A stretch of 63,278 bases of DNA, filler included, from Reclinomonas americana ATCC 50394 (GCA_048213135.1; 14 parts of 14 records of this genome joined end to end with filler, not necessarily neighbours in it); one strand, 5' to 3'; shown: positions 38,628 to 50,005, counted from the whole stretch's first letter. Translations and numbers: made by a program. The notes: a model not told the origin generated them from the sequence alone.

Positions 38628-39722
38628 ATGTCGCGCGCTGCTCACCCTCTCTTCCTTCTGAACAAGGTACTCGAGGGACACACTGGACAAGTGCTGTCTC
38701 TTGCTGTCACTCCCGATGGTCAGCAAGTTGTGAGTGGAGGTTCCGATAACACTGTGCGCGTGTGGTCGCTGGCAACTGGTGAGCAAGTGCGACAGTTGGT
38801 GGGACACAGCGACTGGGTGCAGTGTGTGGCTGTCACTCCCAATGGTCGGTTCATTGTGAGTGGCGATTGGGATGGCATTGTGCGTGTGTGGTCACTGGCA
38901 ACTGGTGAAGAGGTGCGACGGTTGGAAGGGCACGAAAGTAAGGTGTGGTCGGTCGCCGTTACTCCCGACAGTGAGCATCTTGTTAGTGGTGGTTGGGACA
39001 GCACGCTACGAGTGCGGTCACTGGTGACTGGAGAAGAGGTGCGTCGTTGGGAGGTTGGATGGGGTGTGTTCTCCGTCGCTGTCACTCCCGATGGGCAGCA
39101 CATCGTGAGTGGAGGTGAGGACGAGATGGCAACGTTGTGGTCGATGGAGAGTGGTGAGGAGGTACGACGGTTCGAAGGGCATGACTATGAGGTGTGGTCT
39201 TTGGCTGTCACTGCCGACGGGCAACACATCGTGACTGGCAGTCACGACGACACAGTTCGGGTGTGGTCACTGGCGAGTGGGGAAGAATTGCGATGCCTGC
39301 ACGGACACACTACGTTTGTGCGAAGTGTTGCCGTTACTCCTGATGGCACTTTCGTCGTCAGTGGGAGTTATGACAAGACAGTGCGGGTGTGGGCCTTGGC
39401 GAGCGGAGAAGAAGTGCAGCAGTTGGAGGGTCACACTGAAGTGGTGGAGTGTGTTGCTGTCGCTCCCAATGGCGAGTACGTCGTGAGTGGGAGTCAAGAC
39501 AGCACCGTGCGAGTGTGGTCCACGCCCCGCGGCCTCGCTCAGCATGAACTCCAAATAGCGCAGTCGGCGATGCTGGCTGTGCAGGAGTTGCAACGGGAGG
39601 TCGAAGAAGAAGAAGAGGCGGATTCGCGATGCCTGCCGGAGATGGTGTTGCGGTGCTTCATCGTGGAGGAGGCGGAGGTCGTGCGGTTCCGATGCTCCGC
39701 GGATCCCGAGTGGCAAGTGTGA
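38628..39722 (+). CDS. Intronless 7xWD40 protein with conserved C-terminal tail, array copy a
   Basis: ATG at 38628; seven GH..V..VAVTPDG..VSG..D.TVRVW repeats; tail RCLPEMVLRCFIVEEAEV. Confidence 0.9.
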   Translation: MSRAAHPLFLLNKVLEGHTGQVLSLAVTPDGQQVVSGGSDNTVRVWSLATGEQVRQLVGHSDWVQCVAVTPNGRFIVSGDWDGIVRVWSLATGEEVRRLEGHESKVWSVAVTPDSEHLVSGGWDSTLRVRSLVTGEEVRRWEVGWGVFSVAVTPDGQHIVSGGEDEMATLWSMESGEEVRRFEGHDYEVWSLAVTADGQHIVTGSHDDTVRVWSLASGEELRCLHGHTTFVRSVAVTPDGTFVVSGSYDKTVRVWALASGEEVQQLEGHTEVVECVAVAPNGEYVVSGSQDSTVRVWSTPRGLAQHELQIAQSAMLAVQELQREVEEEEEADSRCLPEMVLRCFIVEEAEVVRFRCSADPEWQV

Positions 39723-40079
39723 TGCACTTCAGATGGTGATGCGCGAACGCCTGGAGCATTATTTGCTGCCTCTCTCGCTTTTCTTGTGGCCCTGGGCCGC
39801 CCGGCCGAAGTGAGCGCGGAAGTGACTCGTTCTTATTATCTTTCTCTTCCTCTTTTCTCTCCTCCCTATCACACTCTCAATCCCCCTTTTTCTCAGCCTC
39901 ATCCGAGCTTGTAATGTAACTATGCCGTGCCTCTGCTTGTGCACGGTTTGCGAGCTTTCTGCAACAAGGAAGTCCCTTGGTCCGAAGACGATGACCTTCT
40001 TCAGATGTCAACGTCGATGAATCCTGCTGTCCTCGCTTGGTCTCACACACGGCCGGCACACATTCCGTCACTTGCCCCC

Positions 40080-40791
40080 ATGTCACGCACTGCTTGCCCT
40101 CTCTTCTTGCTGAACAAGGTGCTGGAGGGACGCGCTGGAGAGGTGCGAGCAGTGGCTCTCACTCCCAATGGTCAGCATGTGGTGAGTGGAAGCAGCGACC
40201 ATGTCGTGCGCGTGTGGTCACTGGTGACTGGTGAGCAAGTGCGACGGTTGGAGGGACACACCAACTGGGTGAGTTGTGTGGCTGTCACTCCCGACAGTCG
40301 GCACATCGTGAGTGGGAGCATCGATGAGACTGTGCGCNNNNNNNNNNNNNNNNNNNNNNNNNNNNNNNNNNNNNNNNNNNNTTAATTAATTAANNNNNNN
40401 NNNNNNNNNNNNNNNNNNNNNNNNNNNNNNNNNNNNNAGCGGGGACAAAACATTGCGAGTGTGGTCACTGGGTGGCGTCGAGGTGCGACGGTTGAAGGCG
40501 CACACTGACGTGGTGGAGTGTGTTGCCGTCACTCCCAATGGCGAGCATATCGTGAGTGGGAGTCGAGACAGCACCATCCGAGTGTGGTCCACGCCCCGCG
40601 GCCTCGCTCAGCATGAACTCCGAATAGCGCAGTCGGCAATGCTGGCTGTGCAGGAGTTGCAACGGGAGGTCGAAGAAGAGGAAGAGGCGGATTCGCGATG
40701 CCTGCCGGAGATGGTACTGCGGTGCTTCATTGTCGAGGATGCAGAAGTTGTGCTGTTCCGATGCTCCGCGGATCCCGAGTGGCAAGTGTGA
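40080..40791 (+). CDS. Intronless WD40 array copy b (interrupted by assembly gap)
   Basis: N-terminal repeats before the gap at 40338-40437, last repeat and tail after it; the two halves could belong to different copies. Confidence 0.75.
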
Positions 40792-47668: not shown

Positions 47669-48754
47669 ATGTCAAGCGCTGCTTCTGTCATTCTCGACAG
47701 CCTCGTGCTGGAGGGACACGAGGGCGGGGTGTGCAGTGTCGCCATCACTCCCGACGATCAGCATGTTGTGAGCGGGGGTGTTGACAGCGCAGTGTCTGTG
47801 TGGTCACTGGCGACTGGGAAGGAGGTTCGGCGATTCGAAGCACGTGGTGGTGGAGTGCTTTGTGTCGCCGTTGCTCCCGATGGCCAGCACATTGTGTACG
47901 GGAGTGTGGATGGCATTGTTCAAGTGTGGTCTATGGCGAGCGGTGACGAGGTGCGGTGGTGGAGGGCCGACGCATCGTCGTTCGCCATCACGCCCGATGG
48001 TCAGCACGTGGTGACTGGCGGTATTGACACGCATGTCCATGTGTGGTCTCTGGCGACTGGTGCAGAAGTGCAAGTGTTTCGCGGCCACACGAAACATGTG
48101 CGTTGTGTTACGATCACTCCTGACGGGCAGCACGTGGTGAGTGGCGGATATGACAGGACGATATGCGTATGGTCACTGGCCACTGGCGAGAAAGTGCGAG
48201 AGTGGGAATCAGATGATGAGGTCTTGTTCGCTCTCGCCGTCACTCCGGATGGTCAGCACGTTGTGAGCGGGAGTGGCAAGAGGTACAGTGTCGGCGCAGT
48301 GCGAGTGTGGTCGCTGGCGACTGGCGAACAAGTGCGCTGCTCGACGAGTGCCACTCGAGAGGTATTCTCCGTTGTTGTCACAGTCGATGGTCGGTACGTC
48401 GTGAGCGGAGACGGCGACGAGGCTGTCCGACTGTGGTCACTGGCGGATGGTGAAGAAGTGCGACGGCTGGATGGCCATTTGGCCGCGGTGACAACCGTTG
48501 CTGTCACTCGCAATGGCCAGCACATTGTGAGTGCGGATGGTTGCCAGACAATCCGAGTGTGGTCCACTCCGCATGGTCTTGCCCAGCGAGAGGTGGACGG
48601 AGCTCGTGTGGCCTTGCAGGCAGTGCAGGAGCTGCAGCAGGAGATCGAGGCGGATTCGCGATGCTTGCCGGAGATGGTGCTGCGGTGCTTCATTGTGGAG
48701 GAGGCTGAGGTTGTGCTGTTCCGGTGCAGCACAGATCCCCGTCTGCACTTGTGA
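47669..48754 (+). CDS. Intronless 7xWD40 array copy h
   Basis: Same architecture; close paralogue of g and i. Confidence 0.9.
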   Translation: MSSAASVILDSLVLEGHEGGVCSVAITPDDQHVVSGGVDSAVSVWSLATGKEVRRFEARGGGVLCVAVAPDGQHIVYGSVDGIVQVWSMASGDEVRWWRADASSFAITPDGQHVVTGGIDTHVHVWSLATGAEVQVFRGHTKHVRCVTITPDGQHVVSGGYDRTICVWSLATGEKVREWESDDEVLFALAVTPDGQHVVSGSGKRYSVGAVRVWSLATGEQVRCSTSATREVFSVVVTVDGRYVVSGDGDEAVRLWSLADGEEVRRLDGHLAAVTTVAVTRNGQHIVSADGCQTIRVWSTPHGLAQREVDGARVALQAVQELQQEIEADSRCLPEMVLRCFIVEEAEVVLFRCSTDPRLHL

Positions 48755-48919
48755 GGCGACTGGTGGTGGCCACGTTCCTCTCCTTTCTCTTGCACGCTGG
48801 ATGCGATGAATAAAACCCCACTTCGTACGAGAAGCAAGACGTCGCTCAACACGTCCAGGAAAATGGTCCTCGTCCGTCTCACTCACACCGACACCGACAC
48901 CGACTCACACCATCATCAA

Positions 48920-50005
48920 ATGTCAAGCGCTGCTTCTGTCATTCTCCACAGCCTCGTGTTGCGGGAACACGCGGGCGGGGTGTGTAGTGTCGCCGTCACT
49001 CCCGACGATCAGCATGTTGTGAGCGGGGGTGACAACGCAGTGTGTGTGTGGTCACTGGCGACTGGGAAGGAGGTTCGGCGATTCGAAGCACATGGTGGAG
49101 TAGTGCTTTGTGTCGCTGTTACTCCCGATGGCCAGCACATTGTGTGCGGGAGTGAAGATGACATTGTTCAAGTGTGGTCTCTGGCGAGCGGTGACGAGGT
49201 GCGGAGGTGGAGAGCCAACGTGTCGTATCTGGCCATCACGCTCGATGGTCAGCACGTGGTGACTGGCGGTATGGACACGCATGTCCGTGTGTGGTCTCTG
49301 GCGACTGGTGCAGAAGTACAAGTGTTTCGCGGTCACGCGAAACATGTGCGTTGTGTTTCGATCACTCCCGACGGGCAGCACGTGGTGAGTGGCGGATATG
49401 ACAGGACTATATGCGTTTGGTCACTGGCGACTGGCGAGAAAGTGCGACAGTGGGAGGCACAAGGTGAAGTCTTATTCTCTCTCGCCGTCACTCCGAATGG
49501 TCAGCACGTTGTGAGCGGGAGTGGCAAGAGGTACAGGGTCGGCGCCGTGCGAGTGTGGTCACTGGCAACTGGCGACGAAGTGCGCTGCTTGACAAACACC
49601 ACTCGAGAGGTATACTCTGTTGTTGTCACCTTCGATGGTCGGTACGTCGTGAGCGGAGACGGCGACGAGGCTGTCCGACTGTTTTCACTGGCGGCGGATG
49701 GAGAAGAAGTGCGACGGCTGGATGGCCATTTGGTCGAGGTGACAGCCGTTGCTGTCACTCGCAATGGCCAGCACATCGTGAGTGCTGATGGCGACCAGAC
49801 AATCCGAGTGTGGTCCACTCCCCATGGTCTAGCCCAGCGAGAGGTGGATGGCGCACGCGCGGCCATGCGAGCAGTGCAGGAGCTGCAGCAGGAGATCGAG
49901 GCGGATTCGCGATGCTTGCCGGAGATGGTGCTGCGGTGCTTCATTGTGGAGGAGGCTGAGGTTGTGCTGTTCCGATGCAGCACAGATCCCCGTCTGCACT
50001 TGTGA
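48920..50005 (+). CDS. Intronless 7xWD40 array copy i
   Basis: Same architecture; flanks nearly identical to those of h. Confidence 0.9.
   Translation: MSSAASVILHSLVLREHAGGVCSVAVTPDDQHVVSGGDNAVCVWSLATGKEVRRFEAHGGVVLCVAVTPDGQHIVCGSEDDIVQVWSLASGDEVRRWRANVSYLAITLDGQHVVTGGMDTHVRVWSLATGAEVQVFRGHAKHVRCVSITPDGQHVVSGGYDRTICVWSLATGEKVRQWEAQGEVLFSLAVTPNGQHVVSGSGKRYRVGAVRVWSLATGDEVRCLTNTTREVYSVVVTFDGRYVVSGDGDEAVRLFSLAADGEEVRRLDGHLVEVTAVAVTRNGQHIVSADGDQTIRVWSTPHGLAQREVDGARAAMRAVQELQQEIEADSRCLPEMVLRCFIVEEAEVVLFRCSTDPRLHL

Follow-up and report, generated by a model that had tools for sequence, protein, structure and literature searches.

The repeats of Highly-Repetitive WD40 proteins, defined by an internal identity of at least 0.7 and set apart from a moderately repetitive class (0.4 to 0.7), combine a conserved scaffold with diversity at predicted hot spots, according to the available part of Hu et al. 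(2017, PMC5587647). Proteins of these two classes, of which 2ymu, 5yzv (PkwA of Thermomonospora curvata) and the WRAP-T designer propellers are solved examples, occur in prokaryotes, fungi and protists. In the fungal NWD/HNWD NOD-like receptors (NLRs) HET-E, HET-D and HET-R of Podospora anserina, WD40 paralogs vary at the top face of stereotyped 42-residue repeats; as far as the available text of Paoletti et al. (2007, PMC1805685) goes, the HNWD proteins combine a NACHT domain with an effector domain, their repeats reach up to 100% identity and undergo exchange both inside a gene and from gene to gene, and four codons are positively selected. Here, we describe an array of at least nine head-to-tail WD40 genes, c1 to c9, at positions 38628 to 50005 of a stretch of DNA from Reclinomonas americana ATCC 50394 (GCA_048213135.1), which was analyzed over its whole length of 63,278 nucleotides, filler included (the window). 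The array is real and defines a rare, undescribed protein family with a new conserved tail; no description of it was found in literature on the Reclinomonas americana nuclear genome, on jakobid WD40 gene family expansion or on WD40 proteins of Andalucia godoyi.

With the repetitive WD40 proteins, as they are portrayed in the accessible sections of PMC5587647, the array shares consensus-like blades and hot-spot diversity. Its blades are 0.44 to 0.57 identical in amino acid sequence within each gene, a value in the moderately repetitive band, although our identity measure may differ from that of the paper. Unlike those proteins, the array has old, positionally orthologous blades and is a eukaryotic tandem multigene locus whose products consist of a single propeller and a novel C-terminal tail. 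An earlier note on this DNA had likened the genes to the fungal HNWD sensors, with which they share top-face variation among WD40 paralogs of stereotyped 42-residue repeats. The analogy did not hold up in domain content, repeat identity and concerted evolution: no NACHT domain was present (Pfam listed only propeller families), internal blade identity was far from the up to 100% given in the accessible text of PMC1805685, and blades were only ~60% identical at the nucleotide level with neither exchange nor concerted evolution. Omega (the ratio of nonsynonymous to synonymous substitution rates) at the variable positions was 0.8 to 0.9, not different from 1.

F-box/WD40 proteins (Cdc4/Fbxw7), the SOCS-box protein WSB1 and DCAFs follow the same logic as the array, a variable face joined to a short conserved helical module. 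Lineage-specific tandem expansion occurs in such WD40 substrate-receptor families. In contrast to the F-box and SOCS-box receptors, the array proteins have a tail that matches neither model and lies C-terminally, and no ligase component is linked to the tail. Coronins and POC1 carry a propeller with a C-terminal coiled coil for oligomerization, and the array proteins resemble them in the succession of seven-bladed WD40 domain, linker and helical segment(s), with no sequence relation. Gcp1 to Gcp3 are Pex7-like WD40 orthologue groups that co-occur with a mitochondrial type II secretion system in jakobids, heteroloboseans and malawimonads; judging from the available parts of Horvathova et al. 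(2021, PMC8134430), they too are stand-alone WD40 proteins without an N-terminal targeting sequence from the same poorly sampled protist groups. The tail words VLRCF, CLPEM and LRCFI had no occurrence in six supplementary files of that paper (921,448 characters), and by these words, identity of the array with Gcp1 to Gcp3 appears unlikely.

Results

Organization of the array

Open reading frame (ORF) listing and blade splitting revealed nine paralogous genes, all on the + strand, between 38628 and 50005. These borders coincide with the c1 ATG and the c9 stop codon, and the set of at least nine head-to-tail single-exon genes agrees with what the earlier note had claimed, "intronless" covering coding regions only. 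Seven copies (c1, c3, c4, c5, c6, c8 and c9) are complete single ORFs of 361 to 367 codons with a conserved Met-Ser start, whereas c2 (middle gone) and c7 (5' part gone) are interrupted by gaps. Since 2 of the 13 gaps in the window sit inside the array, nine copies are a lower bound. A tblastn search of the window with c3 gave 25 high-scoring segment pairs, all in 38628 to 50002 and none outside. The spacers between genes are CT-rich and 156 to 368 bp long, a length that leaves no space for an NTPase or other domain, so that the products are stand-alone proteins as had been proposed. Three spacer similarity groups were found (c1>c2 with c2>c3; c3>c4 with c5>c6; c7>c8 with c8>c9 and the sequence beyond c9), and these track gene order; whole gene-plus-spacer units have therefore been duplicated.

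The first copy, c1 (38628 to 39722, 364 codons, tail at 39516 to 39719), contains seven Pfam WD40 repeats and is followed on the same strand by a CT-rich spacer of ~358 bp (39723 to 40079), alignable to that between c2 and c3. In the partial c2 (40080 to 40791), blades 1 and 2 (40080 to 40337) are separated from the end of blade 6, blade 7 and the tail (40441 to 40791) by a gap of the form N44-TTAATTAATTAA-N44 (40338 to 40437); both pieces are open and alignable to c1. Complete genes follow at 41160 to 42257 (c3, 365 codons, tail at 42048 to 42254; the copy used for the structure model), 42601 to 43695 (c4, 364 codons, tail at 43492 to 43692, with the H-S-D-W tetrad kept in all seven blades), 43949 to 45037 (c5, 362 codons, tail at 44840 to 45034, with blades 3 to 5 degenerate by loss of GH or the tetrad) and 45358 to 46461 (c6, 367 codons, tail at 46246 to 46458; the most divergent copy). 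A second gap (46756 to 46855) has taken out the 5' portion of c7, perhaps together with additional copies, and the remaining 3' two thirds of c7 (46859 to 47512, from blade 4, tail at 47318 to 47509) are open to the stop codon. The array ends with c8 (47669 to 48754, tail at 48560 to 48751) and c9 (48920 to 50005, tail at 49811 to 50002), of 361 codons each. With 87% amino acid identity and a synonymous divergence (dS) of 0.15, c9 is a recent duplicate of c8.

For c3, c5 and c6, no in-frame ATG exists upstream of the assigned start, and their products lack an N-terminal targeting sequence, residues 10 to 16 forming the beta strand that closes the propeller in the model; the absence of a signal peptide claimed for the family is consistent with this model and is supported for these three copies. 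Alternative in-frame ATGs at 47564 (c8) and 48806 (c9) would add a putative basic, Ser/Thr-rich extension of 35 to 38 residues (encoded by 47564 to 47668 and 48806 to 48919), free of acidic residues up to position 25. A candidate polyadenylation signal, AAT(A/G)AA ~55 to 65 nt past the stop codon, was dropped, as it occurred only after c4, c7, c8 and c9 and was absent within 200 nt after c1 to c3.

Predicted propeller fold

The family model PF00400 matched all seven complete copies (E values of 1e-47 to 1e-79), with five to seven repeats scored separately. AlphaFold2 predicted a seven-bladed propeller from the alignment of the seven paralogs (predicted local distance difference test [pLDDT], 88.2; two tail helices of low confidence), and a 12-sequence alignment with distant relatives gave a model with 28 strands in seven blades (pLDDT, 91.2; predicted template modeling score, 0.88); the propeller begins at residue ~10. 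Together, these matches and models bear out the seven WD40 repeats per complete copy that had been read from the sequence. A structure search with the propeller only (model residues 4 to 301) yielded Z scores of 45 to 50 against solved WD40 propellers, the leading matches being 2ymu_A (Z score, 49.7; root mean square deviation, 1.6; 289 residues aligned), 7big_A (49.2) and 5yzv_C (49.1), and the top Foldseek match was 5yzv_B (E value, 2.4e-33; 38% identity). Thus, the nearest solved structures are propellers of the repetitive or consensus type, either of prokaryotic origin or designed (2ymu, PkwA and the WRAP-T designs), with WDR5 and G-beta coming next.

A variable top face on a conserved scaffold

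When the seven complete copies, with 49 blades in all, were mapped blade by blade to a 42-position template, entropy peaked at blade positions 13, 14, 15, 17, 33 and 35 (2.65 to 3.63 bits). Position 10 reached 2.78 bits, and the remaining 35 positions did not exceed 2.43 bits. According to the strand boundaries of the model, the peaks lie in the d-a loop, at the start of strand a and in the b-c turn, which in WD40 structures make up the top face. They match the hypervariable positions claimed in the earlier note (after GH, after V, and between SG and D), and the top-face signature is individual to every copy. Tryptophan, tyrosine, phenylalanine and lysine are enriched at the variable positions (W, 7.4% versus 3.0%; Y, 3.2% versus 0.5%; K, 7.1% versus 0.7%). 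Conserved across blades and paralogs are the bottom loops (TPDGQH and ATGEE) and strand d. The variable positions include hot spots of the WDSP scheme, as cited in the available part of PMC5587647. Blades with a conserved scaffold and variable hot spots are the usual look of repetitive propellers and, taken alone, are no sign of diversifying selection.

Age and mode of evolution of the copies

Pairwise dS ranged from 0.68 to 1.26 (except for c8-c9) and whole-gene omega from 0.23 to 0.43; intact as they are at such divergence, the copies are maintained genes and not decaying ones. Paralogs were 52 to 71% identical, with dS saturated in the older pairs. At the nucleotide level, blade identity was 0.66 for the same blade in different genes, compared to 0.60 for different blades, whether of the same gene or of different genes, and for 35 of the 49 blades, the nearest blade of another gene occupied the equivalent position (~7 expected by chance). 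The blades are positionally orthologous, and neither concerted evolution nor blade shuffling has taken place.

Local 3' gene conversion between neighbors is likely for the tails of c3, c4 and c5 (42048 to 42254, 43492 to 43692 and 44840 to 45034), since synonymous sites have diverged less in these tails than in the propellers: the proportion of synonymous differences was 0.37 in the tail versus 0.55 in the propeller for c3-c4 (P = 0.03) and 0.28 versus 0.53 for c4-c5 (P = 0.004). No such pattern was seen in the c1-c3 or the c8-c9 pair. The c3 tail shares 85% identity with the c4 tail and 74% with the c1 tail, though c1 is the closest whole-gene relative of c3.

Selection on faces, scaffold and tail

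Maximum likelihood codon models (GY94+F1X4, fixed tree) were applied to the seven complete copies, with saturation limiting the power of the tests. The six positions of the top face, a class of 42 codons picked post hoc, gave an omega of 0.81; a value of 1 was not rejected (twice the log-likelihood difference [2dlnL], 0.78), whereas 0.3, 1.5 and 2.0 were (2dlnL of 14.2, 6.7 and 14.1, respectively). The a priori hot spots 15, 17 and 33 (21 codons) gave an omega of 0.92, likewise not different from 1. In the scaffold, omega was 0.30 (omega of 1 rejected; 2dlnL, 222); the bottom loops gave 0.43, strand d 0.40 and the core strands 0.26. The tail was the most constrained part (omega, 0.18; omega of 1 rejected; 2dlnL, 89). 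Entropy and omega per site class therefore agree with the proposed picture of a conserved scaffold and tail with a varying top face. Diversifying selection at that face, as claimed, is not demonstrated: neither estimate is distinct from 1 and, for the 42 codons, values of 1.5 and above were rejected. With respect to the outcome that the earlier note itself had named as refuting (dN/dS below 1 at top-face sites), the values of 0.81 and 0.92 point neither clearly towards it nor clearly away from it. Near-neutral faces on a constrained remainder fit functional diversification or relaxation and are no demonstration of positive selection.

Among the youngest copies (c7, c8 and c9), top-face omega was 1.98 versus 0.39 in the scaffold for c7-c8 (11 nonsynonymous and 2 synonymous differences at the face), 1.54 versus 0.37 for c7-c9, and 0.62 versus 0.48 for c8-c9, all based on few changes. 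None of these contrasts was significant (P = 0.057, 0.068 and 0.78). The codons that differ between c8 and c9 were concentrated at the top face (12 of 39 versus 30 of 251 in the scaffold; P = 0.005).

Two readings hinge on these values. A diversifying recognition repertoire, in which an arms race would select on the faces of cytosolic non-self or immune sensors and the tail would be their common effector or signaling end, is rather improbable in our view. The focus of variability on known WD40 interaction hot spots, a tandem expansion typical of such families, the raised estimates for c7-c8 and c7-c9 and the excess of c8-c9 changes at the face would suit it. Yet the class-wide omega stayed at 0.81 even with the most variable sites picked post hoc, the a priori hot spots came no higher than 0.92, the young-clade contrasts fell short of significance, most duplications are old, and an NTPase or death-type domain, near-identical repeats and blade shuffling are all missing. 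Alternatively, the top face could be unconstrained, with the bottom and side loops and the tail doing the work (e.g., in a structural or cytoskeletal/flagellar scaffold) and the paralogs serving as largely redundant dosage copies. That omega at the face is indistinguishable from 1, that the bottom loops and strand d are unusually conserved, and that the tail is under the strongest constraint of all point in this direction. However, the surplus of W, Y, F and K is what binding sites tend to show, more so than free drift; dosage copies usually stay similar, while these are 52 to 71% identical with saturated dS; and c1 and c3 still partly share a top-face signature after a dS of 0.68. On balance, we regard an idle top face as possible but unlikely.

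The conserved C-terminal tail

The shared tail of ~60 residues noted earlier was present in all nine copies, with a length of 64 to 71 residues, a mean column identity of 78% and the invariant core R-C-L-P-E-x-V-L-R-C-F-x-V-E. In the model from the 12-sequence alignment, it is predicted to form two long helices (300 to 329, pLDDT of ~84; 337 to 358, pLDDT of ~78) with an acidic linker between them. At E values of up to 10, no Pfam family, including F-box and SOCS-box, matched any of three tails; a tail profile found no match among PDB sequences (best E value, 0.91, an opsin), and no neighbor was found in the ESM Atlas. A C-terminal type 1 peroxisomal targeting signal was considered and dropped, because the endings (WQV, WHL, WHF, RHL and LHL), compared by eye with the signal's consensus, are not conserved in the relatives described below.

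The tail might be a cryptic, shortened docking helix of the F-box, BC-box or H-box kind, which would make the proteins substrate receptors of cullin-type ubiquitin ligases, a more specific form of an adaptor function. The spacing L-P-E-M-V-L-R-C-F-I resembles that of the first F-box helix (by eye, against the F-box consensus), and a variable WD40 domain with a short constant helical motif is generally known as the layout of F-box/WD40, SOCS-box/WD40 and DCAF proteins. Such families expand with positive selection in nematodes, according to the available part of PMC8120010. On the other hand, the Pfam and PDB searches of the tail were negative, the model has one continuous 22-residue helix in place of the three-helix F-box, and an F-box is usually found on the N-terminal side of a WD40 domain, which together make a ligase receptor doubtful.

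Relatives of the family

Searching 1.84 billion representative proteins with the tail profile gave five matches at E values of up to 0.001, four of them credible. P0121 (116 amino acids; E value, 2e-27) is an ORF derived from expressed sequence tags (ESTs) and labeled Reclinomonas americana, a jakobid, in EukProt; P0122 (381 amino acids; 5e-7) and P0123 (394 amino acids; 1e-4) come from Logan assemblies, and P0124 (2e-4) is a 57-amino-acid ENA fragment. The fifth, P0125 (1,072 amino acids; 4e-4), was rejected as a low-complexity repeat protein without a propeller or the tail core. P0121 is 58 to 70% identical to the array copies, within the range between paralogs, and nests among them in the tree (clade support, 84; pairing with c5, 53); being EST based, it is one relative of the family that is transcribed. 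P0122 and P0123 consist of propeller and tail, are collinear with the copies over the full length at 21 to 28% identity and retain the core R-x-L-P-x-x-V-L-R-C-F-x-x-E. The propeller-plus-tail architecture therefore predates the array, with the tail as its signature. A word-index search with the tail in proteins of 207 to 662 amino acids returned nothing at E values of up to 10, and the tail profile recovered P0122 and P0123 again among longer proteins and nothing further.

In a search of a 5.8-billion-protein database with the whole protein, bacterial, metagenomic and fungal WD40 proteins dominated; among the 120 matches listed, identity did not exceed 57% and coverage 92%, and no entry corresponded to the window's own proteins. 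The array propellers are closer to bacterial and metagenomic WD40 proteins (up to 57% among those listed) than to P0122 and P0123 (21 to 28%), which could reflect convergence on the WD40 consensus or a propeller rebuilt from one blade in the lineage. A bacterial origin of the propeller was considered and rejected, as high identity is expected from consensus-like repeats and the composition is native.

That the array might be an artefact or foreign DNA (a repeat that was misassembled or collapsed, contamination with bacterial DNA or a recently acquired, horizontally transferred segment) gains some appeal from its position in a gap-rich draft scaffold and from the prokaryotic, metagenomic or designed nature of its most similar propellers, both in sequence and among solved structures. 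But the nine copies all differ and hence do not stem from a collapse, the spacers resemble the remaining window in being CT-rich, and the third-codon-position GC content of the array (0.61 to 0.73) matches that of other ORFs in the window (0.66 to 0.80). Moreover, the tail was not confirmed in any of 39 pattern matches from JGI metagenome contigs or 19 from viral contigs, and 15 from prokaryote genomes contained one weak 24-residue match (in a Prevotella metagenome-assembled genome), which was taken as chance because its E value is relative to the candidates only. As the only named relative is eukaryotic, too, an artefactual or foreign source is hardly credible.

Remainder of the window

All 13 gaps of the window (e.g., 5325 to 5424 and the two within the array) are 100 bases long and have the N44-linker-N44 form given above, an all-frame stop linker for scaffolding; contigs between gaps average ~5 kb. 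An ordinary WD40 exon lies separately at 3891 to 4913 (- strand), matching several propeller families (best E value, 3e-9; PF00400 at 6e-6, just below the cutoff). It is unlike the array tail, and hence the array is not simply a duplicated local WD40 gene. An ORF running off the window start (1 to 946, + strand) matched Peptidase_S74, the intramolecular auto-processing chaperone of endosialidase (E value, 5e-8), and is followed by a glutamate/arginine-rich, coiled-coil-like ORF (736 to 1455, + strand); frame changes or introns appear to break up the Peptidase_S74 gene. At 29112 to 29500 (+ strand) lies a long (CT)n microsatellite, and an ACTC-type repeat at 11627 to 12607 (- strand) reads as THSL repeats. 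CT-rich tracts precede exon-like ORFs, such as a GT4/ALG2-like one at 23774 to 24970 (- strand), consistent with polypyrimidine-rich introns.

Discussion

We favor, with a probability of roughly 55%, the interpretation that the array encodes a lineage-restricted, adaptor-type family of stand-alone, probably cytosolic seven-bladed propellers, in which variable faces are combined with a constant tail for a common partner or for oligomerization. The family has grown by tandem duplication of whole gene-plus-spacer units. Purifying selection maintains the core of the beta sheets as well as the bottom loops and outer strands, and acts most strongly on the tail, while six top-face positions per blade have changed at an approximately neutral rate, giving each paralog a different face enriched in aromatic and charged residues. 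As an adaptor set, the proteins would bind different ligands through the variable top face, and the constant tail might couple all paralogs to one common partner, or to each other via oligomerization.

Several observations weigh against this interpretation. A top-face omega of ~0.8 to 0.9 is equally expected from relaxed constraint, and the view of the top face as the working surface is presumed from general knowledge of WD40 proteins. The role proposed for the tail is a guess from its predicted shape and its conservation, as nothing known matches it. At least two blades each are degenerate in c5, c8 and c9, and the assembly around the array is fragmentary.

Beyond the adaptor family favored here, one may speculate about a combinatorial, NLR-independent recognition system, in which diversified propellers, assembled into mixed oligomers via the tail or docked on one effector (e.g., a ubiquitin ligase), would sense or dispose of prey, symbiont or viral proteins in a free-living bacterivorous protist. 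We consider such a system quite improbable; if it existed, the raised top-face omega in the youngest copies would mark the edge of ongoing diversification.

Few eukaryotes have been sampled as sparsely as jakobids and their relatives. The array defines a propeller-plus-tail family whose conserved C-terminal module has neither a Pfam entry nor a relative of solved structure and, among 1.84 billion representative proteins, no more than four credible relatives. Should the tail prove to be a docking or oligomerization device, the family would have arrived independently at the "variable binder plus constant handle" design of F-box, SOCS-box and NLR families.

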